NCBI GenBank assembly: GCA_947628365.1
Contig: CANQZN010000001.1
Span: 1 to 62,632 of the forward strand
DNA from: an uncultured Bacilli bacterium
GTDB taxonomy: Bacteria; Bacillota_I; Bacilli_A; RF39; UBA660
DNA length: 62,632 nucleotides
Direction: 5' to 3'
Shown: positions 5-39,915 of the stretch, in pieces
How positions within the stretch are numbered: position 1 is the first letter of the stretch
How the letters are laid out: each line of letters opens with the position of its first letter
Program-made: the position numbers and the translations under genes
Notes under the pieces: generated by a model
The model's database searches: none
Told to the model about the DNA's origin: nothing
The model's input: only the letters and a program-made list of their open reading frames with translations

Positions 5-67
5 ATTATATATTACCCCCCCCGGTGTCAAGCTGTTATCAAAAAAATGTTGTTAACTCACAACATT
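5..67 (-). promoter_or_regulatory. Repeat cassette copy A. Minus strand has hairpin 67-46 plus T-run, TTGACA (31-26), CC, G8 (plus-strand C8 at 16-23), TAATA, TATAAT (10-5). It points leftwards out of the window.
   Basis: Near-identical to the cassettes at 1390-1453 and 8964-9025. Both hexamers are perfect consensus. The spacer counts to 15 nt (11-25). Confidence 0.6.
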
Positions 68-1360
68 AATTAATTTTATCCTAGCATATCCATTACCATT
101 ATTACCAACCATTTTATCCTTTCCATCATGAGTTGGCATTTCCGTGTTACCTGCAATCATTTCCATATCAATAAATACTTTACCACTATAATGATATGAA
201 CAAGTTATATTTGGAGATTCCTCTGTACATCCATCGTTAGTTATAATATTATCTGCAGCTGATTCTTTTTTTATTGCAATACATCCTTTATATCCTGAGA
301 TAAAGGATGAACCACCAGCACCGGAAACCCCAGTCATTCCTTCATCTACACCACCTCCGCCACCATAGTAGCCACTACCTCCTCCGGCTCTAGTGCGAGT
401 ATCATTCATAATATAATTTCCGCCAATGCCAAATTTCCCGAAAGATTCTTCTGTCTTGTTATCATTTGGTATACCACCTGATGTTTGAGTTCCACCAATT
501 GGATTTGCTAAAACTCTATTATCTGATTCTTCTATTGGATCATACTTAATTTCTCCATTACCACCATTTAAGGCACCGCCAAATCCACCATTTATATTTC
601 CTGAATTGTTCCACCAAAACGCTCCACCTCCACCAGCTGCAACCATTATTCTTGATTTTAATGAATTAAAATCATTCCAATTACCAGTATCAGAAATTTC
701 TAATCTCACATCTGTAGCTCCACCTCCACTAGCGGCCGCTGTCCATGGATGCTGTTTTCCATTACCTCCACCATTAAATGTTTCAGATACGACATAATCA
801 ACTTGTGGAGTATAATGATGTCCTTCTTCACCAACAAAAATATATAATTTATCTTGTTTATTTAATGTAATCGTTCCTTTCGTATAAGCGCCTTTACCAC
901 CTTCAGCACCAGTTTCAGTTGATCCTCCACTTGCTCCCCACAATTCTATTTGATAATTGCCTGTCTTTGGAGCTATAAATACTTGATAGCTTCCGGTATA
1001 ATCAAATTCTTTTTCTTCTAGTAAATCAAAATATAAATAACAATAAAATGATTTATTACTTTTTACTCCGACTTGATCATTCTTCGTATATAAGGCATTT
1101 TCTATTTCATTTCCCTTGTTATCCATACATTTACTTTTATTTAAATTTAATACGTAACCTTTGGGAAAACTATATCCTTCATATTTTTGATAACCATTCT
1201 CTATTTCAGTATACATAGCAAAGGCATTATTATTTACCTCTTGTTTTAGTATGACATCATCTAACTTTTCTTCTTTATTGGTTTTTGCTAATATGACACC
1301 AGTTAGTATTACTCCTACCAAAAGTATTATTACTAAATATTTCTTGTTAATTATTCTCAT
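53..1360 (-). CDS. Membrane-anchored surface protein: family N-terminal module plus a glycine-rich C-terminal domain
   Basis: N-terminal TM anchor (KKYLVIILLVGVILTGVIL). The first ~115 aa are shared with the ORFs at 7624-8934 and 38384-39661. The C-terminal part (YQVFIAPKTGNYQIELWGASGG...GGKGAY...LYIFVGEEG plus many GGG runs) resembles the bacterial glycine-rich domain family as I remember it. Confidence 0.75.
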   Translation of the reverse strand: MRIINKKYLVIILLVGVILTGVILAKTNKEEKLDDVILKQEVNNNAFAMYTEIENGYQKYEGYSFPKGYVLNLNKSKCMDNKGNEIENALYTKNDQVGVKSNKSFYCYLYFDLLEEKEFDYTGSYQVFIAPKTGNYQIELWGASGGSTETGAEGGKGAYTKGTITLNKQDKLYIFVGEEGHHYTPQVDYVVSETFNGGGNGKQHPWTAAASGGGATDVRLEISDTGNWNDFNSLKSRIMVAAGGGGAFWWNNSGNINGGFGGALNGGNGEIKYDPIEESDNRVLANPIGGTQTSGGIPNDNKTEESFGKFGIGGNYIMNDTRTRAGGGSGYYGGGGGVDEGMTGVSGAGGSSFISGYKGCIAIKKESAADNIITNDGCTEESPNITCSYHYSGKVFIDMEMIAGNTEMPTHDGKDKMVGNNGNGYARIKLINVVS

Positions 1361-5662: not shown

Positions 5663-7600
5663 GTGATTAAATTGCGCGCTCTAAAAATATTTTTAAAATC
5701 AATTATTTTTTGCATTTTAGCCTTTATTATTTGCTATATTGGTATTAACACTTATGCAATTATTACCCCTAAATTAAACATTACTAATAATGGAACTTAC
5801 TTTTTATATGACAATAAAGATGAACTTGTTTATCAAGGAAGTACCACCTCTTCTTGGGTTAATTTAGAAGATATTGATGAAGATTTAATTAACTCGGTAA
5901 TAGCAATTGAAGACAAGAAATTTTATTCGCATCATGGTTTTGATTTACTTAGAATTGCGAAAGCTATGTTAAGTAATATTTCTTCTGGAAAAATAGTCCA
6001 AGGTGGATCGACTATAACGCAACAATTAGTTAAAAATTTATATTTAGATTTTGGTAAAACTTGGAAAAGAAAGATTGAAGAAGCATTCTTAACTATAATT
6101 GTTGAAATACAATACGATAAAGATGAAATACTAGAAGCGTATCTTAACACGATTAACTATGGTAATGGTAACTATGGGGTAAGTAATGCAAGTAGATATT
6201 ATTTCAATAAAGATGCAGATAATTTAACTTTAGAAGAAGCAATTATTTTAGCAGGTATTCCAAAAAGTCCTAATAGATATAATCCAGTAGCATCGAGAGA
6301 AGCATCAATTAATAGATCTAAAGTGGTTGCAAGTGCAATGCTTACTAATGGGTATATAGATAATGAAACATTTGAAAAATTAGATTTTGAATCGGTTAAT
6401 ATATATGGTAAAAGTAATGAAAATAACTTACAAATGCTTATGTATTATCAAGATGCAGTTTATAAAGAATTGGAATCTTTAGGGATAAGTAAAAGTATTC
6501 TAGAAACTGGTGGACTTAAAGTATATACTAATTTAGATATGGCTAAACAAACTAGTTTAGAGAAAAATATTTTATATAATTTACCTGATGATAATGAATT
6601 ACAAGTGGCAAGTGTTATAGTAGATCCCATGAGTGGTAAAATAGAAGCTTTAACTGGCGGTATTGATTATGGAAAAAGTCAGTACAATAGAGCTACTCAG
6701 TCCAAAAGACAAGTTGGGTCCACTATGAAAGCTTTCTTATATTATGGGGCTTTAGAAAATAATTTAGTATCCTCTTCTAAGTTCTCTAGTGAATACACAA
6801 CTTTTAATATTAGTAACTTACAAACTTATTCACCGACTAATTTTAATAATAAATATGCCAATAAAGAAATAACTATGGCGGCAGCAATTGCTTTTTCAGA
6901 TAATATTTATGCCGTTAAAACTAATTTATTTTTAGGAACGGAAACTCTTGTTAATACTGCTAAAAAAGCGGGAATTAAAGAAAAATTAGAAGCCATACCT
7001 TCTCTTGCTTTAGGTACTGGAGAAATAAATATTCTTGATTACGCTACTGGATATGCAACACTTGCCAGTGGTGGCTATAAAAAAGATTTATATTTTATTA
7101 GAAAAATTGAAGACAATGAAGGTAATGTTATTTACAATAAGGAAGAAAAGAAAAACTTAGTATTAAATCCAAATTATGTTTATATTTTAAATGAACTACT
7201 TTCTAATACTAGTAATTCAGCATTTAAAGATTATACTAGTGCAACGGCATCAACTATTGCTAGTAAATTAAGTCGAAAATATGCGATTAAAACAGGAACT
7301 ACTGCTTCTGATTACTGGACAGTTGGTTATAATAAAGACGATTTAATGCTAATATGGTTAGGATATGACGATAATAGAGAGTTTACTACTGGATATAGTT
7401 ATGTAGGTAAAAATGCTTTTGCTGATACCATTGAAGAAATTCAAAAAGATTTAGAAGATAATTGGTATAAGACTCCAGAAAATGTTGTTGGGCTAATTTT
7501 AGACTCAGTAACTGGTGAACTTACCAATGATAAATCTAGAGCTGTTATGTATTATTATTTAAAAGGTAGTGAACCAGATTTAAAGAAAAATGCCACTTAA
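5663..7600 (+). CDS. Class A penicillin-binding protein (glycosyltransferase plus transpeptidase)
   Basis: GT51 motifs EDKKFYSHHGFD, GGSTITQQL, RKIEE. Transpeptidase motifs STMK and KTGT. The alternative start TTG at 5672 has a better SD (AGGTGA). Confidence 0.9.
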   Translation: MIKLRALKIFLKSIIFCILAFIICYIGINTYAIITPKLNITNNGTYFLYDNKDELVYQGSTTSSWVNLEDIDEDLINSVIAIEDKKFYSHHGFDLLRIAKAMLSNISSGKIVQGGSTITQQLVKNLYLDFGKTWKRKIEEAFLTIIVEIQYDKDEILEAYLNTINYGNGNYGVSNASRYYFNKDADNLTLEEAIILAGIPKSPNRYNPVASREASINRSKVVASAMLTNGYIDNETFEKLDFESVNIYGKSNENNLQMLMYYQDAVYKELESLGISKSILETGGLKVYTNLDMAKQTSLEKNILYNLPDDNELQVASVIVDPMSGKIEALTGGIDYGKSQYNRATQSKRQVGSTMKAFLYYGALENNLVSSSKFSSEYTTFNISNLQTYSPTNFNNKYANKEITMAAAIAFSDNIYAVKTNLFLGTETLVNTAKKAGIKEKLEAIPSLALGTGEINILDYATGYATLASGGYKKDLYFIRKIEDNEGNVIYNKEEKKNLVLNPNYVYILNELLSNTSNSAFKDYTSATASTIASKLSRKYAIKTGTTASDYWTVGYNKDDLMLIWLGYDDNREFTTGYSYVGKNAFADTIEEIQKDLEDNWYKTPENVVGLILDSVTGELTNDKSRAVMYYYLKGSEPDLKKNAT

Positions 7601-7623: not shown

Positions 7624-8934
7624 TTAAAATTCGATAATAAAGGGATCTTCTAGTGTTCCAGTTCCAGTTTCACTTTTTAATTTTTGAGATGCATCGATAT
7701 AAAAGACTGGACGAACAAAGAAGAAGGCTGCCATAGGAAAATCTTTATTGAAACCCGTGGGATATACATAATGTCCTAAGAAAAAGCCACTGAAATTATC
7801 CCAGCCAAACCTTGTCATCGTCCATTCACCTCCACTTACTTTATGTTCATCATCATTTTGGGATAAATGCAACCAGCCAGTTTGACAAATTTCATAATTT
7901 TCTGCATAGAGTTCACAGTTTGCTATATCACTTACGGAATAATTATAATCATGCAGATACATTAAGCTTACTTTTCCAGTAAATGTTTTATCCCATTTTT
8001 CATTTTCATGTCTTATATAATAAACTTGCTGTCCATGGAGTGAAGAATCCGACTTATCATCTACCACCGCTGATTTTGCTCCAGGATCTCCAGCATTTGC
8101 TTTTTCATCCCATATTGTACCTTTTTGACCAGTTTCTATTAAATATAATTCTTTTCCAGTTTGTTTTGCACCTAAGGTATCATTGCTAAACATATCTCCA
8201 TATAGCCAAGTATTATCGGATATTTTTTCTTTCCAGCCCTCTGGAACATATGCAGGGTTTTCTAAGAAACTAGTTCCTTTTATTGCTTCATATATTTTAC
8301 TTTGTGGAAATTCTATATCTGTATCGTTGTTAATATACCATTGTATTCCTTGTTCTAATGCTTCTTTTTTAATTACTTTTACTCTTCCAGTAGATGCTTC
8401 TATTCCTATTATTCTATACATATAATGATCTGTATCACTTGTACATGTATCTTTATCACTTGTTCCAAAACAGATATAGTTATTTATTCCTTCACTTTGT
8501 TGTCCTTGGAATCTATACATTGCACCACGCTCCTTATCTGTCTTAAGTCCATGTGAACTTATATCATTAGTTTCAAAAATCTCTGCACCTAAAGTTTTAT
8601 CAAAATATAAATAACAATAAGTAGTAATTCCACTCGTTATTGTTACATTACCATTTTCATAACTAAGCACTCCATTTAATTCATTTCCATTATTATCTAT
8701 ACATTTTGATTCTGTTAAGTTAAGTACATACATCTCTGGAAATTTATTATCTTCAACTGGAACATACTCATTTCCTTCTTCTTTATACATAGCAAATGTT
8801 TTATTATTTACTTCTTGTTTTAATATTACATTATCCAATTGAACTTTTTCTTTTGGTTTTAATATTATGACACCAGTTAGTATTATTCCACCCAACAATA
8901 TTATTAATAAATATTTTTTGTTAATTATTCTCAT
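7624..8934 (-). CDS. Membrane-anchored surface protein: family N-terminal module plus a second type of C-terminal domain
   Basis: N-terminal TM anchor. Full-length paralogue of 38384-39661 (shared blocks YMYRIIGIEASTGRVKVIKKEAL, GKVSLMYLHDY, VRPVFY, GTLEDPFII). Shares only its N-terminus with 53-1360. Confidence 0.75.
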   Translation of the reverse strand: MRIINKKYLLIILLGGIILTGVIILKPKEKVQLDNVILKQEVNNKTFAMYKEEGNEYVPVEDNKFPEMYVLNLTESKCIDNNGNELNGVLSYENGNVTITSGITTYCYLYFDKTLGAEIFETNDISSHGLKTDKERGAMYRFQGQQSEGINNYICFGTSDKDTCTSDTDHYMYRIIGIEASTGRVKVIKKEALEQGIQWYINNDTDIEFPQSKIYEAIKGTSFLENPAYVPEGWKEKISDNTWLYGDMFSNDTLGAKQTGKELYLIETGQKGTIWDEKANAGDPGAKSAVVDDKSDSSLHGQQVYYIRHENEKWDKTFTGKVSLMYLHDYNYSVSDIANCELYAENYEICQTGWLHLSQNDDEHKVSGGEWTMTRFGWDNFSGFFLGHYVYPTGFNKDFPMAAFFFVRPVFYIDASQKLKSETGTGTLEDPFIIEF

Positions 8935-9034: not shown

Positions 9035-10105
9035 TTATTTATCAATTTTTATTGTATATATTAGTTCGTTAGTATTATCATCTTTTGTTACATTAACAAC
9101 ATAATTATTACTTGTTAAATCATTTTGTAATTTTTCAACTAAGTTAATTGCAACACTCATATCTTTTACTTCTTGAGTCGGTGTTACTTCTGGTTGGGGT
9201 GCAGGTTCAGTTGGTGGTTGAGGAGTTGAAATATCAAAATCAAGCATTTCTATTTCTTCTACTGGTTCACTATTAAAGTTTGGTTCTGTATCAACAACAT
9301 TCATATTAGCGACCTCATCCTCCAAATAATTGAAGAATTTATTTGGAATTGGTTTAGCTTCTTCAGTATTAGCAGGAATAGTATCTCTTCTTTTTGGAGG
9401 TTCAAATGGATTTATAATATCAACAGCCCTTTCTCTTATTTCATTTATATTAGGTGTATTTTCAATTATTGGTGCATCCCCTGTAACTGTTTCTTCTTTT
9501 TTGGTACCTTTTAATCTTTCGTCTAAATCTTTAACAGTTAATCGATCATTTATAATAATATTAAGCCATTTTTCTTGGTCTTCAAAGTTTTCTAATTGTA
9601 ATAAACTTCTTGCGTGACGTTCAGAAATTTTACCTTCAATTAAAGCATTTTGAACTACTTCTGATAAAGATAATAATCTTAATTTATTAGAAATAGCAGA
9701 TTGGCTTAAACCCATTCTTTTGGCTAATTCTTCTTGAGTTAAATAACCTTTATCTAATAATGCTTTATATGATTTAGCTTCTTCTATTGCAGATAAATCT
9801 CTTCTTTGAACATTTTCTACAATAGCTACTTCCGCACTTTTTTTATCATCCATTTCAGTGATTATTGCAGGTACAGTTGTAAGACCAGCCAATTTAGAAG
9901 CTTTGTATCTTCGCTCACCAGCAATGATTTCATACTTCTCACCAAGGCGTCTTAAAACTAGGGGTTGAATAATCCCATGTTCTTTTATTGAAGATGCTAA
10001 TTCTTTAAGAGCGTTTTCATCAAAATTTAATCGTGGTTGAAAACGATTGGGTATTATATCTTCAATTGGCACATTTAAAACTTGCGACTCTGTATTCACA
10101 AACAT
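9035..10105 (-). CDS. ParB/Noc-family CTP-dependent DNA-binding protein with a Noc-like recognition helix and an atypical Pro-rich C-terminal extension
   Basis: ParB N-terminal motifs IIPNRFQPR and GERRYKA. The HTH region LSQSAISNKLRLLSL...KISERHARSL resembles B. subtilis Noc. It sits next to rsmG, as noc does in Bacillus. Confidence 0.85.
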   Translation of the reverse strand: MFVNTESQVLNVPIEDIIPNRFQPRLNFDENALKELASSIKEHGIIQPLVLRRLGEKYEIIAGERRYKASKLAGLTTVPAIITEMDDKKSAEVAIVENVQRRDLSAIEEAKSYKALLDKGYLTQEELAKRMGLSQSAISNKLRLLSLSEVVQNALIEGKISERHARSLLQLENFEDQEKWLNIIINDRLTVKDLDERLKGTKKEETVTGDAPIIENTPNINEIRERAVDIINPFEPPKRRDTIPANTEEAKPIPNKFFNYLEDEVANMNVVDTEPNFNSEPVEEIEMLDFDISTPQPPTEPAPQPEVTPTQEVKDMSVAINLVEKLQNDLTSNNYVVNVTKDDNTNELIYTIKIDK

Positions 10106-10146: not shown

Positions 10147-10854
10147 CTATTTTTTCAATGGCTTTTTTATGATTTTATCATAAGTTCTTAAGTTATTTAT
10201 TTGGGTTTCTTTCTTCTTTTTTATAACTATAATATTTCTAATTCCTTCATTATCATGAAGATTAAATGTAATAATATTTGTTATTTCTCCATTTAAAATA
10301 GCAATAGTTTCTCTTGAGTCTTCTAGATTATCATCCATTATACCTTTAAGGGCAATGAAATAGCCTCCTACTTTAACAAGTGGTAGAGAGATTTCTGTTA
10401 ATACACGCATATTAGCAACTGCTCTTGATGTAACTATATCAAATTTATTAAGATTATTTTTGACATAATTTTCTACTCTATCATTAATTATTTCAACATT
10501 TATATTAAGTTTTTTAGATAATTCTTGTAAAAATTTAATTTTCTTATTATTGGAGTCTAAAAGAGTAACATTTATTTTAGGGAAAACTATTTTTAAAACC
10601 ATACCAGGAAAACCAGCACCAGTACCAATATCAAGTAAATTATTTATATTATTTAAATCTATGGCTTTAACAATAGTTAAAGAGTCATAAAAATGTTTCA
10701 AATAAATATCTTCATCAGTAACAATTCTTGTTAAATTAGTATGTTTATTATATTCTTGTAAAAATTCTTTATAAGTATTTAACATATTTAATTGTTCAGT
10801 TGTTAAAGTAATTCCTAACTTAGAAACACTAGTAATAAATTCATTTTGTGTCAT
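10147..10854 (-). CDS. rsmG: 16S rRNA (guanine527-N7)-methyltransferase
   Basis: SAM motif LDIGTGAGFPG. Conserved mnmG-rsmG gene order. Confidence 0.9.
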   Translation of the reverse strand: MTQNEFITSVSKLGITLTTEQLNMLNTYKEFLQEYNKHTNLTRIVTDEDIYLKHFYDSLTIVKAIDLNNINNLLDIGTGAGFPGMVLKIVFPKINVTLLDSNNKKIKFLQELSKKLNINVEIINDRVENYVKNNLNKFDIVTSRAVANMRVLTEISLPLVKVGGYFIALKGIMDDNLEDSRETIAILNGEITNIITFNLHDNEGIRNIIVIKKKKETQINNLRTYDKIIKKPLKK

Positions 10855-16374: not shown

Positions 16375-18105
16375 ATGAATATTAAAAAACGAGTATTTTC
16401 AATTCTTATTAGTTTGTCAATTATGATTAATTTAATGACACCATATAATAAGGATAAGAAAAATGATAATGAGTGTGAAATAGCAAGTGAAGTAGTTTTA
16501 GAAGAAGATAAAGTTTTAGCATCTTCTTTTAACTATAATATAAATGAGGTACGTGATTACTTTAAAAATCAAGAATATTTAAGTACTGATAATATAGATA
16601 AAGATAAAATACAACAAATATATAATTATGAAAAAAAAGATTGTCCCTTTATATTTAATGGTAATGTATCCTCTTTAATTAATAAAATAAAACAAAATTC
16701 TTTAACTTATGCTCAAAGTAACCCACAATATAATTATTTATTTTCTGATTCAATGATGCAAGTATTTCCAAGTGATGACTATACAGAATCTTTACAAAAG
16801 ATATATGAGCAATACAAAGATGAACTTTTAAAGGATGGGAAATATGATTATGAATTACAAGGACAATTAATTTTTAATATAGCCCTTGAATATATCATAT
16901 ATAATTTAGTTTTAAATAGTACCAATGACTTAAATGAAGATTTATGTAAAATACAAAATTTAGCCATAGTAGAGGGTAGTTGTAACAAGGAAGATGAGGT
17001 AGTACCTACATTTACCTTAGGAATATATAATTCAGATACAAATGTGATAGTAATTGATTATGAATATAATAAAATAGCAACATTTTTAAGTAATTTTTCT
17101 TTAAAGCCAGCATCTTTTGAATTATTTAAAGCTATGACTGATAAAGTTATAGCAACCCTTAGTCATGAACTAAATCACGCAAGACAAGAAATGTGTGAGC
17201 ATCGGAAAATAGAGCAAGATCATACCTTATTTAATTATATAGTTAGGGTAAATGATAAATCTTATTTATATAAACCAATATATTTTGAAACATCTGCCGA
17301 AAGTGATTTATATAATTATGAAATATTAGTTCAAAATGAAGATGATAATCATTTTAATCACTCTTATGTTTATGAAAGAGAAGATGAATCTTTATTATTT
17401 TTATTAACGATTTTTAATAATAAACCAATAGATGACTATTATGATGCTATATTTGATTTAGATATTAAGAAATTCTATGATTTCTTTGATTGCCATAATA
17501 TAACTGATTATGAAGAAATATATAGAATTTTACAAACATTTAATAATATTTATAGAGAAAATAGAGAGATAGAAAAATATAATAATCAAGATTATTTACA
17601 TTTTAAATTAGAAATTTTTACAAAAACTTTAGATAATTTTATTAAATATATTGAACTTAACCCTAATTTTACTTATGAAGAACAAATATTTTTATATGGA
17701 ATTATTAGAGAAGTAATCATTGATAATGCTTATATGAATAACTTAGAAAAATTACAAAGAGAAAACGTAAGTATAGCTAGTTTAGATGAGGATTTTTGGG
17801 ATAATTTTAAATTGTATGAATACGATAATAACTTTATGGAAGAAATAGATAAGTTAAATCAAAAATTTATTGAATACTTAAGTTATAAACATAATAAATC
17901 AACTTTCAGTGTTCAATTAGATTTAAATAAAAGTGTAGAAGATATAACTAATTTAGATACCCATTTAAGTGTATTAGAAGAAAGATTTTCAAAATTAAAA
18001 GCTATTATCTTTACTACATACATAAATAATAACTATAATAGGGTCATAAATTATTATAAATTAGAAAATAGAGAAGATAACTTAACTAGAAAACTTGAAA
18101 ATTAA
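16375..18105 (+). CDS. Hypothetical secreted or membrane-anchored protein with one HExxH motif
   Basis: N-terminal hydrophobic signal (VFSILISLSIMINLM), LSHELNHARQE, and SD AAGAGGGA. No family recognised. Confidence 0.55.
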   Translation: MNIKKRVFSILISLSIMINLMTPYNKDKKNDNECEIASEVVLEEDKVLASSFNYNINEVRDYFKNQEYLSTDNIDKDKIQQIYNYEKKDCPFIFNGNVSSLINKIKQNSLTYAQSNPQYNYLFSDSMMQVFPSDDYTESLQKIYEQYKDELLKDGKYDYELQGQLIFNIALEYIIYNLVLNSTNDLNEDLCKIQNLAIVEGSCNKEDEVVPTFTLGIYNSDTNVIVIDYEYNKIATFLSNFSLKPASFELFKAMTDKVIATLSHELNHARQEMCEHRKIEQDHTLFNYIVRVNDKSYLYKPIYFETSAESDLYNYEILVQNEDDNHFNHSYVYEREDESLLFLLTIFNNKPIDDYYDAIFDLDIKKFYDFFDCHNITDYEEIYRILQTFNNIYRENREIEKYNNQDYLHFKLEIFTKTLDNFIKYIELNPNFTYEEQIFLYGIIREVIIDNAYMNNLEKLQRENVSIASLDEDFWDNFKLYEYDNNFMEEIDKLNQKFIEYLSYKHNKSTFSVQLDLNKSVEDITNLDTHLSVLEERFSKLKAIIFTTYINNNYNRVINYYKLENREDNLTRKLEN

Positions 18106-21054: not shown

Positions 21055-21070
21055 TATTTCCCGGGAAATA
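21055..21070. promoter_or_regulatory. Perfect Noc-binding-site (NBS) 16-mer TATTTCCCGGGAAATA
   Basis: Exact palindrome 4 nt after the dnaN stop. Identical to the three sites in the 27.2-27.7 kb island. Confidence 0.7.
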
Positions 21071-24697: not shown

Positions 24698-27208
24698 ATG
24701 GATCATAGTATTGATAGATTAGAAGAAAATAATATTGTTAAAGAAATAAAAGACTCATTTATTGATTATTCATTAAGTGTTATTATTTCAAGAGCCCTTC
24801 CAGATTTAAGAGATGGATTAAAGCCAGTTCATAGAAGAATTCTTTGGTCAATGTATGAATCTGGCTATACACCAGATAAACCCCATAAAAAATCAGCTCG
24901 TATAGTTGGTGATGTTATGGGTAAATATCATCCACATGGTGATTCCAGTATTTATGAAGCAATGGTTAGGATGGCTCAAGACTTTAGTTATCGTAATACA
25001 TTAGTTGATGGTCATGGAAACTTCGGTAATATAGCTGGAGCAGGTGCTGCAGCAATGCGTTACACAGAATCAAGACTATCAAAAATTTCTCTAGAATTAT
25101 TAAGAGATATTAACAAAGATACAATTAATTTTGTGCCAAACTTTGATGAATCTGAAAAAGAACCCGAGATTTTACCTTCAAGATTTCCAAATATCTTAGT
25201 AAATGGTACAATGGGTATTGCCGTTGGTATGGCAACAAATATTCCGCCACATAATTTAGGAGAAGTAATTGATGGATGTGTTGCATACATTGATAACCCA
25301 GATATTGATACTGATGGCTTAATGCAATACATTAAAGGTCCAGATTTTCCTACTGGTGGTATAATTTTAGGCAACAGTGGTATTAAAAAAGCTTATGAAA
25401 CAGGCCGTGGAACAATAACTATTAGAAGTAAAGCAACTATTGAAGAAAAAGATGGAAAACACTACATTATTGTTGATGAAGTTCCTTATGGTGTAAATGT
25501 TTCTGACTTAAAATCAAAAGTTGCTGAACTTGTTCATAATAAGATTATTGATGGTATTGCTGATTATCATACAGATTTAAAAAATGGCGTTAAGATAACA
25601 ATTACTTTAAAAAAGGATGCCAATCCACAAGTAGTTCTTAACAATTTATATAAACATACTCAATTTCAAATGAGTTATGGTATCATTTTCTTAATGATTG
25701 ATAATCAAGTACCTCGTACTTTAGGCCTAAAAGATATTATTTCTAAATATTTAAATTTCCAAGAAGAAGTTATTATTAGAAGAACAAAATTTGAATTAGA
25801 TAAGGCTGAAAAAAGAGTTCATATATTAGAAGGTTATAAGATTGCGCTAGATAACTTAGATGATTTTATTAAAATTATTAGAGAATCTGAGACAGATATA
25901 ATTGCTAAAGAGCAATTAATGAGCAAATATGGCTTAACTGATGTTCAAGCTGATGCTATTCTTGAATTAAAACTTCGCCGTTTAACAGGTTTAGAAAGAG
26001 CTAAAATTGAAGAAGAATTAAAAGAATTATTGGCAAGAATTCAAGAATTAAGAGGAATACTTGCATCTAGAGAAAAAATTCTTGAAATAATTAAAAATGA
26101 ATTGTTAGAAATTAAAGAAAAATACGCTGATGAACGTCGTACAAAGATTGATATGACCGCTATTGAATATATTGAAGACGAATCATTAATTCCAGAAGAG
26201 GATGTTATGATTATGTTAACCAATAAAGGTTATATTAAGAGAACAACTAACGAAACATTTAAGGTTCAAAACCGCGGTGGAGTCGGGGTTAAAGGACTTA
26301 CAACTAACGATGAAGACTATGTTGAACATTTAATTAATCTTTCAACTCATGACTATATAATGTTCTTTACTAATAAAGGTAAAGTTTATAGATTAAAAGG
26401 TTATGAAGTACCAGAATTTAGTAGACATTCCAAAGGTATACCAGTTGTTAACTTATTGCAAATTGAAAAAGATGAAAAAATTAATTCAGTTATAAAAGTT
26501 AATAAAGATGATGATTATAAATATTTATTCTTTGCCACTAAGAAAGGTATAGTTAAGAAGACTAACATATCTGAATTTGAAAACATCCGTACAACTGGTA
26601 AATTATGTATAAATCTTAATGATGGTGATGAATTATTAGATGTTAAGAAGACTACTGGTGAAGACATTATTCTTTTAGGTAGTAGCAATGGTCGTATGGT
26701 TAAGTTTAAAGAATCAGAGATCAGAGCAATGGGTAGAACTGCAACTGGTGTAAGAGGAATTAACTTAGATGGTGCTAGTTGTATATGTTTTGAAGTCGTT
26801 AAAGAAGAATCAACAATAATTTTAGTAACAGAAAAAGGCTACGGCAAAAGAACAAATGTTTGTGAATTTAGACAAACAAAACGTGGTAGTAAAGGTGTTT
26901 TAGCCCTAAATGTTACTGAAAAAAATGGTAATTTAGTTGCTGTTAAAGTGGCAGAAGTTGATAAAGATATTGTTATAATGACTAATGCTGGTGTTACTAT
27001 TAAATTACCAGTCGACCAAGTTTCATTATTAGGCAGAGTTACCCAAGGTTTAAGACTTATATCATTAAGGGACAATCAATTTGTTGCTACAATATCAATT
27101 GTTGATAAAACAAATGAAGAAGAAAAAGAAACGATTGAAGCAGAAAATAAAGAAGAAGTTAACAATGAATCTTCAAATGAATCTTCTGAAAATGATAAAA
27201 TAGAGTAA
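24698..27208 (+). CDS. gyrA: DNA gyrase subunit A
   Basis: [16 protein letters not shown] (catalytic Tyr), C-terminal beta-pinwheel repeats, acidic tail. Confidence 0.97.
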
Positions 27209-27228
27209 TTTAAATGCTCTATTTTTTT
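27200..27228 (+). terminator. gyrA intrinsic terminator
   Basis: ATAGAG / CTCTAT stem spanning the stop codon, followed by T7. Confidence 0.5.
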
Positions 27229-27258
27229 GTTACATGAAACATAGATATAGGTCAGAAA

Positions 27259-27274
27259 TATTTCCCGGGAAATA
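27259..27274. promoter_or_regulatory. NBS-1: perfect TATTTCCCGGGAAATA inside a 34-bp perfect palindrome (27250-27283)
   Basis: Read directly: GGTCAGAAATATTTCCC|GGGAAATATTTCTGACC. Confidence 0.75.
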
Positions 27275-27435
27275 TTTCTGACCGGTAATGTATATTTTAA
27301 AAGTTCTATTTTTAACTATTTATTGCTATTATGAATAGGAATCTGTTAATTTAAATAATCTCATCGATTATTATTTAAACAAAGCACTTTTTAAACTTTT
27401 TAAAGCCAATATATTATTATTGATTTGTATTTCAA

Positions 27436-27451
27436 TGTTTCACGTGAAACA
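27436..27451. promoter_or_regulatory. parS: parS-1: perfect TGTTTCACGTGAAACA inside a 32-bp perfect palindrome (27428-27459)
   Basis: Read directly: TATTTCAATGTTTCAC|GTGAAACATTGAAATA. Matches the consensus ParB/Spo0J centromere site. Confidence 0.85.
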
Positions 27452-27475
27452 TTGAAATAAGAATAAGATCACAAT

Positions 27476-27491
27476 TATTTCCCGGGAAATA
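27476..27491. promoter_or_regulatory. NBS-2: perfect TATTTCCCGGGAAATA
   Basis: Core of a 22-bp perfect palindrome (27473-27494), 24 bp from parS-1. Confidence 0.75.
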
Positions 27492-27635
27492 ATTTGTAGG
27501 TAAAAAATTATTAAAAATTAATCTTGCAAATCATCGGTCAAAAAGCATTATAAATGATTTGGCCGGTATAAATCATTTAAAAATTAGAAAAATTAACAAT
27601 AATTTCCATGAAAAATATGTTTATATAATTCACAA

Positions 27636-27651
27636 TGTTTCACGTGAAACA
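27636..27651. promoter_or_regulatory. parS: parS-2: perfect TGTTTCACGTGAAACA (24-bp palindrome 27632-27655)
   Basis: Read directly: ACAATGTTTCACGTGAAACATTGT. Confidence 0.85.
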
Positions 27652-27664
27652 TTGTTTAAAAAAA

Positions 27665-27680
27665 TATTTCCCGGGAAATA
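27665..27680. promoter_or_regulatory. NBS-3: perfect TATTTCCCGGGAAATA inside a 30-bp palindrome (27658-27687)
   Basis: Read directly: A7-TATTTCCCGGGAAATA-T7. It lies 13 bp from parS-2. Confidence 0.75.
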
Positions 27681-27819
27681 TTTTTTTAAAGATTAATTTA
27701 ATTATTATTCATTATATGTATATTTTAACATTTATATATTTTTTATATAAATAATTACATGAATGATAATGAAAGTGCTTTTTATAGCCTAATAAGCCGC
27801 ATATAATTATATCTTTCAA

Positions 27820-27835
27820 TGTTTCGTGTGAAAAA
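27820..27835. promoter_or_regulatory. Degenerate parS-like site TGTTTCGTGTGAAAAA
   Basis: Three mismatches to the 16-mer. Its flanks (CTTTCAA...TTGAAAG) resemble those of parS-1. Confidence 0.4.
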
Positions 27836-27998
27836 TTGAAAGAAAAAGGATGCAAAAAATTGTGTAAATAATTAGTGGTGATAATGATAATAACTAAAAA
27901 TGCTTGTAAAACTTTTAAAAAGTATGAAATTTATATGATTTCAAATTATTTTTCTATAGAATATATTACTATAATATATCTTTAATGTATAATCACAA

Positions 27999-28014
27999 TG
28001 TTTCACGTGAAACA
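27999..28014. promoter_or_regulatory. parS: parS-3: perfect TGTTTCACGTGAAACA
   Basis: Read directly: CACAATGTTTCACGTGAAACATTA. Confidence 0.85.
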
Positions 28015-28029
28015 TTATAAATAATTAAA

Positions 28030-28058
28030 TTGAATTATAAAAAAATATATGATATTAT
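28030..28058 (+). promoter_or_regulatory. Candidate sigma-A promoter of the SRP RNA
   Basis: TTGAAT (28030-28035), a 17-nt spacer, and TATTAT (28053-28058), 6 nt before the first paired G of the RNA. Confidence 0.5.
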
Positions 28059-28064
28059 TTTTAT

Positions 28065-28135
28065 GCACAACAAATATATCGTAAACTGGTCAGAGTTGGA
28101 AGACAGCAGCCACATCGGTCCCTATTTGTGTGTGC
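28065..28135 (+). ncRNA. ffs: Small (4.5S-type) signal recognition particle RNA
   Basis: CTGGTCAGAGTTGGAAGACAGCAGCCACATCGG matches the conserved SRP domain IV (GGUCAG..GGAA tetraloop..AGCAGCCA). The ends GCACAACAAATA and TATTTGTGTGTGC pair, followed by T6. It occupies the same neighbourhood as scr (tadA-scr-dnaX) in B. subtilis. Confidence 0.75.
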
Positions 28136-28156
28136 TTTTTTATTGGAGAATTAACT

Positions 28157-28576
28157 ATGGATGAAAAAATATTAAATGAACTTTATAAAGAAACTTTAAA
28201 AGCATATAAGAGAAATGAAATACCTGTTGGTGCTATTATAATTAAAGAAGACAAGGTTATAGCAAAGGCTCATAATAATCGCCAAAATAACCACAATATT
28301 TTAGGACATGCAGAAATACAAGCAATAATAAAAGCTGAAAAGAAAATTAAAGATTGGCGATTAAATGGGTATACTATGCTTGTAAATTTAGAGCCTTGTG
28401 AATTGTGTCAAAGAGTTATAAAAGAATCTAGAATAGACAAAATATGTTATATATTAAAATCAAAAAATAATGCTAAAATAATTGCTAACTTAGAGCAAAC
28501 AAACGTATGCGAAGATTGGCAAAAGAAATTTCAACAATTAATGGATAATTTTTTTAGTAATTTACGTAAAAAATAG
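28157..28576 (+). CDS. tadA: tRNA-specific adenosine(34) deaminase
   Basis: Zinc motifs HAEIQAI and PCELC. Start moved to the ATG after TGGAGAA, because the tracked N-terminal extension overlaps the SRP RNA 3' end and terminator. Confidence 0.85.
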   Translation: MDEKILNELYKETLKAYKRNEIPVGAIIIKEDKVIAKAHNNRQNNHNILGHAEIQAIIKAEKKIKDWRLNGYTMLVNLEPCELCQRVIKESRIDKICYILKSKNNAKIIANLEQTNVCEDWQKKFQQLMDNFFSNLRKK

Positions 28577-39661: not shown

Positions 39662-39744
39662 AATATTTCAACTTGAATTGCTATTTAACTTGTGTTAAAC
39701 TTAACTTAATTAACGAGGAATTTGTTAAAAGGTAATTATGAATT

Positions 39745-39915
39745 ATTTAAAGAGAGTTAGTATTTGGTGTAAGCTAATAATATGAAATAATTAGGTATGG
39801 GCAAAGGAGTTAAATCGCAGAGGTGCGTTAAAATATTAAGTGTATGATTTAATCATAAATAAGGGTGGTACCACGGGTAATACTCGTCCCTACTTTTATT
39901 TATGATTTTTATTTT
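39745..39915 (+). promoter_or_regulatory. T-box riboswitch leader, candidate Met (AUG) specifier
   Basis: AGAGAG/AGTA stem-I elements (39751-39763), ATG followed by A at 39782-39785, and the T-box sequence AATAAGGGTGGTACCACGG (39858-39876). A T-rich tract runs up to the GGAGG of the next ORF. metG is downstream. Confidence 0.75.

Follow-up and report, generated by a model that had tools for sequence, protein, structure and literature searches.

A Noc-related ParB-family protein that begins past the membrane helix, and interleaved parS and NBS sites near the origin of uncultured Bacilli

The accepted mechanism of Noc relies on an N-terminal membrane helix. What, then, does a Noc-like protein do where this helix is missing, and which DNA does it read where two classes of sites lie side by side? 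The question is raised by a 62,632-bp stretch of DNA (the window; contig CANQZN010000001.1 of assembly GCA_947628365.1, from an uncultured Bacilli bacterium), in which a ParB-family gene lies next to rsmG and perfect copies of both parS and the Noc-binding site (NBS) are found. A previous reading of the bare sequence (the original prediction) considered either a separate Spo0J encoded elsewhere or a relaxed or dual specificity of this protein. We consider it reasonably probable that the gene encodes a Noc-derived clamp that loads at NBS, has no membrane helix and gives its output through a linker, that parS is read by a separate ParB, and that both clamps mark the origin region.

Relationship to Noc and the DNA-reading residues

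The gene and its two conserved domains are located as follows.
9035..10105, minus strand: Noc-like ParB-family gene, 356 aa, with ParB_N and HTH_ParB domains
9806..10084, minus strand: N-terminal domain for binding of cytidine triphosphate (CTP), aa 8-100 (domain match, motifs)
9503..9799, minus strand: helix-turn-helix (HTH) DNA-binding domain, aa 103-201 (domain match, alignment, Foldseek)

The protein matched ParB_N (PF02195) at E=7.8e-35 (119 bits) and HTH_ParB (PF17762) at E=1.3e-31 (109 bits). The features that define the ParB/Spo0J superfamily (ParB_N with the QPR, GERRxRA and ENLQR motifs, plus HTH_ParB) were all present, with R to K in GERRYKA as the sole deviation. CTP boxes I (QPR, aa 23-25), II (GERRYKA, aa 63-69, nt 9899-9919, confirming the deviant box reported before) and III (ENVQRR, aa 97-102) were invariant among 63 aligned family members. 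A GTG at codon 3 is an alternative start that would give 354 aa, as in relatives beginning with MNTESQ or VNTESQ. An identical protein (P0001) is encoded on short contigs as well.

Residue-by-residue alignment to solved Noc and Spo0J chains showed that the HTH region reads GLSQSAISNKLRLLSL...KISERHARSL. The recognition helix (aa 132-147, nt 9665-9712) carries Q135, K141 and S146, and R163 lies within KISERHARSL (nt 9602-9631). The four specificity positions are therefore Q135-K141-S146-R163, or Q-K-S-R, as had been assigned by eye; Noc has Q-K-K-R and Spo0J has R..G. Relative to the Noc set Q173/K179/K184/R201, the protein possesses three equivalents, with S146 replacing K184. Q135, K141 and R163 were invariant in the 63 aligned members. 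Both by sequence and by fold, the solved structures best matched were those of Noc: Noc chains scored 187 bits, slightly above Spo0J (173), and the Foldseek comparison with the Noc DNA-binding domain-NBS complex 6y93 gave a TM-score of 0.88-0.92, normalised to target length. The AlphaFold2 model, built on the 63-sequence alignment, was confident in the N-terminal and DNA-binding core, with a predicted local distance difference test score (pLDDT) of about 90.

In NBS, adenine 1 is read by Q173 and cytosine 6 by R201, and one lysine at 179 or 184 suffices for these two residues to read NBS specifically (Jalal et al. 2020, PMC7383237). In the same study, R173 and G201 were invariant in parS-binding ParBs, and dual-specificity variants mostly had T or S at position 201. 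With Q-K-S-R, the lysine rule predicts NBS-specific binding by the window protein, and binding to NBS rather than to parS is what we predict from its residues. The protein is like Spo0J/ParB (PDB 6sdk, 1vz0, 4umk, 6t1f) in fold, CTP motifs and origin-proximal site array, but it has Q and R where R173 and G201 are invariant, it lacks the N-terminal peptide that stimulates ParA, no ParA gene is adjacent, and the tree described below groups its family with Noc.

All 120 close homologues (53-100% identity) have GERR[YF]KA; SERHAR[ST]L was found in 119 and Q-K-[S/T/A] at the first three specificity positions in 117 of them. For the wider family, 1.84 billion cluster representatives (50% identity) were exhaustively searched without a profile and the 150 best matches were analysed. 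All 150 were of the same type, 227-677 aa in length, and in nearly all of them the match started at residue 1-7. Their specificity code was QKNR in 92, QKSR in 15 and QKTR in 11 (QK[NST]R in 118/150), and GERR[YF]KA was present in 130. Since all 150 outscored canonical Noc, the family is large and diverse. As judged from these comparisons, the loss of the helix, GERRYKA, the code and the linker are traits of the family and not peculiar to the window genome.

The best family match was the Noc model TIGR04285 (272.8 bits, versus 179.6 for the generic ParB model). The relatives bear the NCBI name 'ParB/RepB/Spo0J family partition protein'; the whole family is missed by the curated Noc model, which is a gap in annotation. 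For the N-terminal and DNA-binding region, a neighbour-joining tree with a small sampling of two canonical Noc and five Spo0J sequences recovered the family as monophyletic in 99% of bootstraps and split the family plus canonical Noc from Spo0J in 94%, or 90% with the recognition helix and the R201 segment masked. A sister relationship to canonical Noc is thus supported rather than settled by the sequences. The window protein is best filed, on present sequence comparison, as a member of Noc by descent, synteny and DNA code, not by the curated model or the membrane-helix criterion.

It shares with Noc of B. subtilis and G. thermoleovorans (PDB 7ol9, 7nfu, 7ng0, 6y93) the position after rsmG, Q173/K179/R201, a putative Noc-type C-terminal domain and the canonical 16-bp NBS, and its ParB_N and HTH domains were 47-49% identical to those of Noc in structural alignments. 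It differs from Noc in having K at the third basic position of GERRxRA, S, N or T (in the family) instead of K at 184, no N-terminal helix, alpha2 or loop, a disordered acidic linker of about 110 residues (>300 in some relatives) with two motifs, and NBS clustered with parS near the origin.

parS and NBS sites and the search for a second ParB

The following sites, to which no strand is assigned, were located. The occurrence of NBS and parS together, noted before, was confirmed, with four and three perfect copies.
21055..21070: perfect 16-bp NBS TATTTCCCGGGAAATA in the spacer between dnaN and a comK-like gene
27259..27274, 27476..27491 and 27665..27680: three perfect 16-bp NBS in the gyrA-tadA array
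27436..27451, 27636..27651 and 27999..28014: three perfect parS TGTTTCACGTGAAACA, interleaved with NBS
27820..27835: decayed parS copy in the same array
28059..28144, plus strand: signal recognition particle (SRP) RNA gene, the right boundary of the parS/NBS array, with tadA and dnaX next

The chance expectation for perfect sites in the window is about 0.1-0.2. From gyrA to the SRP RNA gene, the 920-bp spacer reads NBS-parS-NBS-parS-NBS-(decayed parS)-parS, and the array lies about 9 kb from dnaA. All four NBS of the window fall within 7 kb, with none in the remaining ~55 kb; NBS sites of B. subtilis are scattered round the chromosome (PMC8429893).

Using DnaA as the anchor, we compared about 20 kb round the origin in each related species. 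Among the close relatives (DnaA identity of 71% or more), 14 had a contig that reached the spacer after gyrA; every one of these carried both perfect parS and perfect NBS there, and most had one further NBS just after dnaN. The array of locus L021 had up to 8 parS and 7 NBS. Across the loci selected by DnaA, an unbiased set, 19 NBS had the nearest parS 23-47 bp away, centre to centre. A scan of metagenome contigs for exact NBS and parS patterns 6-36 bp apart gave at least 120 matches, essentially every one in the gyrA-tadA-dnaX context at a GC content of 0.22-0.31. The exceptions, L117 and L172, have a low-GC array fragment joined to high-GC (0.38-0.48) DNA and are most likely assembly chimeras. 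In total, the array was located at the gyrA-tadA spacer in the window (27208-28130) and in loci L007-L031, L057 and L059-L178; in some genomes (e.g., L129 and L100) it consists of tandem parS-NBS units with a period of about 72-106 bp. Our literature search found no description of interleaved parS/NBS arrays or of a Noc without the helix. The interleaved arrays are the most interesting and unexpected part of the finding, and they present a natural case of two sister CTP clamps that could load within a few tens of base pairs of each other.

The NBS in the dnaN-comK spacer (~80 bp) occurs at the same place in many relatives (e.g., L001 773-786, L008 12648, L012 12644), and may serve as a loading site or as an operator of the comK-like gene. 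The second possibility, extended to the whole set, would make the protein a CTP-dependent transcriptional regulator like KorB, with NBS as operators in this spacer and in the array upstream of the SRP RNA gene, tadA and dnaX. The conservation of the 80-bp spacer site fits such a role. KorB of plasmid RK2 (PDB 8qa8, 8qa9) is a structural relative, a CTP clamp of the ParB family without a ParA-type N-terminal peptide that uses protein partners; but it is only 25-28% identical in structural alignments, is plasmid-borne and has a different DNA site. Near the NBS sites, scans for promoters and terminators gave no usable information in such AT-rich DNA, multiple tandem parS-NBS units (up to 8 + 7) resemble loading arrays rather than operators, and no KorA-equivalent partner was identified. 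We regard this explanation as decidedly unlikely.

The two site classes remained separate. In 1.25 Mb of lineage DNA there were 386 perfect parS and 336 perfect 16-bp NBS, and neither single-position parS/NBS hybrid was present; one half-parS/half-NBS site was found. Two more distant relatives, encoded at L022 2507-3499 and L030 2549-3541 (both minus strand), have a degenerate recognition helix PLDVLQSKLKLL without Q173 or N178. They have lost the C-terminal domain and retained the NKFFNxLEDExANM motif, and each locus has three perfect parS, no NBS, and a decayed relic of an NBS half-site near 7340-7385. The two separate classes of sites, together with parS outliving the decay of the helix, point to two readers, of which a canonical ParB encoded outside the window would read parS.

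Within the window, six-frame translation revealed no second open reading frame (ORF) with GERR and no KGGxGK[ST] (deviant) Walker A motif, and phmmer with Spo0J and Soj sequences matched only the noc-like ORF; as a control, the same queries readily recovered soj-spo0J in three Clostridia loci. The reported lack of ParA or a second ParB in the 62 kb was thereby reproduced. The description of the gene as the sole ParB-family gene holds for the window and for about 20 kb round the origin in relatives, and is unproven as a claim about the whole genome.

It might then be supposed that this protein is the only ParB-family member of the organism and serves both parS (for segregation and SMC loading) and NBS with dual or relaxed specificity. 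The lack of a second ParB or Soj in the window and in related loci, the family-wide absence of soj-spo0J beside the gene, and the spacing of 23-47 bp between parS and NBS in shared arrays all speak for it. However, Q173 and R201 are the residues that switch ParB to NBS, parS binders invariably have R173 and G201, and dual variants mostly have T or S at 201 (PMC7383237); hybrids, which should be acceptable to a relaxed reader, were not seen among 722 perfect sites; perfect parS arrays are kept in relatives with a degenerate helix; and the absence of ParB concerns origin-proximal DNA only. A sole ParB of dual specificity is, in our estimation, very improbable. Of the two possibilities considered in the original prediction, a separate Spo0J is the one favoured by the published rules, the separate site classes and L022/L030.

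Several points weigh against NBS-specific clamping next to a separate ParB. The specificity rule was derived on the scaffold of Caulobacter ParB, and we did not find QKSR itself in the supplementary text of PMC7383237. Distant QKNR relatives, L023-L028 (451-583 aa), keep parS at the array locus with almost no NBS nearby, so the link between protein and site is not uniform. The R-to-K change lies in box II, and CTP binding of the window protein is predicted from motifs. The score of 272.8 bits is below the curated cut-off of 315 for TIGR04285, with only positions 1-199 of the 255 in the profile matched. No canonical ParB or Soj was found in the lineage DNA searched (within about 35 kb of the origin, plus the 62-kb window), and soj-spo0J was not adjacent to the gene in any family locus examined, including those of basal members; the second ParB is thus one that we purely infer.

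The N-terminus, the linker and the possible output

The N-terminus of the window protein reads MFVNTESQVLNVPIEDIIPNRFQPR. An in-frame TAA, 3 codons ahead of the ATG, rules out a longer N-terminus. In the alignment, residue 7-8 corresponded to residue 26 of G. thermoleovorans Noc, and about 7 residues precede the first strand of the CTP domain. It therefore begins past alpha1 (the membrane-targeting sequence), alpha2 and the 8-residue connecting loop of Noc, in the layout described in PMC8429893. Its first 11 residues are acidic and not amphipathic. By alignment, upstream stop and N-terminal composition, the window protein has no Noc-type amphipathic membrane-targeting helix of ~10 residues, in agreement with the original prediction; the helix was also absent in 120/120 close homologues, which have only 16-23 residues ahead of PNRFQPR.

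An engineered truncation, NocNdelta10, did not bind liposomes yet kept CTP binding and clamping (PMC8429893). Like NocNdelta10 and NocNdelta26 of that study, the window protein is devoid of the membrane-targeting sequence and keeps the CTP and NBS domains; its start point equals that of NocNdelta26, of which it is a natural counterpart. Unlike these truncations, it is a natural, clade-wide form under purifying selection, and its added linker motifs may supply a replacement output.

The remainder of the protein is divided as follows.
9161..9490, minus strand: disordered acidic/Pro-rich linker, aa ~206-315, absent from canonical Noc (AlphaFold2, composition)
9302..9346, minus strand: linker motif 1, PNKFFNYLEDEVANM (PNKFFNxLEDExANM), aa 254-268 (alignment, AlphaFold2, composition)
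9236..9259, minus strand: linker motif 2, EEIEMLDF (ExLDF), aa 283-290 (alignment, composition)
9038..9160, minus strand: putative Noc-type C-terminal (dimerisation) domain, aa 316-356 (AlphaFold2, transitive profile match)

The linker, whose length and P/E/T-rich composition had been noted before, comprises ~110 residues rich in P, E, N and T with a net charge of -15, and AlphaFold2 predicted disorder at 207-311. Motif 1 is predicted to form a short amphipathic acidic helix, with N255, F258, N259, E262 and M268 invariant; in motif 2, E286, L288, D289 and F290 are invariant. They were present in 116 and 118, respectively, of the 120 close homologues. As clamp-binding or SSB-tail peptides, the two motifs were considered and dropped, for they did not match the consensus sequences of such peptides.

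The small terminal domain had been taken as a replacement of the usual C-terminus, which our comparison does not bear out. AlphaFold2 predicted one helix and two strands at 317-355 (pLDDT 84-93). This domain had no direct match to TIGR04285, but that of a clade-B homologue (L023) matched positions 208-255 (the last 48) of the model at E=4.6e-8, a value close to that of the C-terminus of B. subtilis Noc. By the predicted fold and by homology that is transitive via L023, it is probably the usual Noc-type C-terminal domain. The new feature is the disordered insert ahead of it.

The amphipathic character of motif 1 could also mean that classical nucleoid occlusion has been kept, with membrane attachment moved to an internal element such as the PNKFFNxLEDExANM helix. 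The hydrophobic moment of this helical segment (0.47-0.53, versus 0.43 for the N-terminal segment of B. subtilis Noc) and its conservation in close homologues agree with this idea. Its charge, however, is -2 inside a linker of -15, unlike that of cationic membrane-targeting helices; motif 1 was present in only about 33-48 of the 150 wider-family representatives; and NBS of the subclade are concentrated at one origin-proximal array, not scattered. A relocated membrane anchor appears unlikely to us.

The protein could, finally, be a decaying noc remnant without specific function, as might be suggested by its score below the Noc model cut-off, the lost N-terminal helix and the R-to-K change in box II. 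Conservation contradicts this view. Hundreds of homologues carry the CTP motifs, the DNA-reading residues, the linker motifs and the C-terminal domain in invariant form, and the cognate sites are perfectly maintained. We give this explanation almost no credence.

In the reading that we favour, the protein would load as a CTP-gated clamp specifically at NBS and not at parS. Because the N-terminal helix is missing (compare NocNdelta10), it would be unable to tether DNA to the membrane as Noc does, and its output would pass via the linker motifs, probably by the docking of a partner protein to them. The neighbouring parS would be read by a separate ParB of the canonical type, whose gene would lie beyond the window, and the two clamps would jointly mark the origin region. 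Candidate outputs are anchoring of the origin, control of division, and regulation of ParB or of SMC loading.

More tentatively, and as a speculation to which we lean rather less than half-way, Noc may have been repurposed from a genome-wide membrane tether to an origin-specific partner of ParB. The interleaved arrays would then be a composite centromere, at which two different CTP clamps load next to each other (centres 23-47 bp apart), with a new output via the linker motifs, for instance origin anchoring or division control in a spore former. A large natural clade that has kept the motifs for the CTP switch and NBS recognition, dropped the helix and moved the sites into arrays shared with parS suggests that another output can be built on the Noc scaffold. 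The reading predicts that the purified protein binds NBS only and does not bind liposomes, that a partner exists for the PNKFFNxLEDExANM and ExLDF motifs, and that the protein and ParB occupy the gyrA-tadA array together.

The origin region and other observations

The noc-like gene is preceded directly by rsmG, as the original prediction had it.
10147..10854, minus strand: rsmG (GidB), directly upstream of the noc-like gene

In Bacillus, noc occupies the same position after rsmG. This synteny was seen in every locus examined, including those of family members that are basal in the tree. The left arm, on the minus strand, reads rpmH-rnpA-yidC-jag-mnmE-mnmG-rsmG, followed by the noc-like gene. 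On the right arm are dnaA-dnaN-comK-like-recF-gyrB-gyrA, the SRP RNA gene and tadA-dnaX-recR-holB-yaaT-pth-mfd-spoVT...metS-tatD-ksgA-yabG, in the gene order of Bacillus subtilis. The window has a GC content of 27%, with a GC skew that changes sign near 16 kb. Gene order and skew switch identify it as the origin region of a low-GC Firmicute.

All of the closest genomes come from uncultured organisms: rabbit-gut 'Lapin' metagenome-assembled genomes (MAGs) under the label Bacilli bacterium, others recorded as uncultured Mycoplasma sp. or Mollicutes bacterium, and the MAG GCA_017466775.1. A peptidoglycan synthase, SpoVT and YabG are encoded in the window, and SpoIIR is encoded in the relative L001. 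This clade of uncultured low-GC gut Bacilli appears to consist of spore formers.

Three further ORFs were noted. A 576-aa ORF (16375-18105, plus strand) without a Pfam match separates rpmH from dnaA, at or next to the expected site of oriC; it is present in L004 and absent from L001 and L179. A 436-aa ORF (7624-8934, minus strand), also without a Pfam match but with an N-terminal hydrophobic segment, is located between the PBP1A gene and the noc-like gene. Its presence in L006 and absence from L001 and L179 indicate a strain-level insertion. The third, of 435 aa (53-1360, minus strand), strongly matched the ALK/LTK glycine-rich domain PF12810 (E=3.6e-55), a domain named for animal receptor kinases.

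Some gene starts probably need to be called again. The GTG that was mechanically called as the start of the tadA ORF (28130-28576) falls inside the SRP RNA gene; the true tadA start is probably the ATG at 28158. Similarly, a T-box leader (39707-39894, 95 bits) is followed by an ORF that has a Pfam match of the dUTPase type and overlaps the start called for metS.

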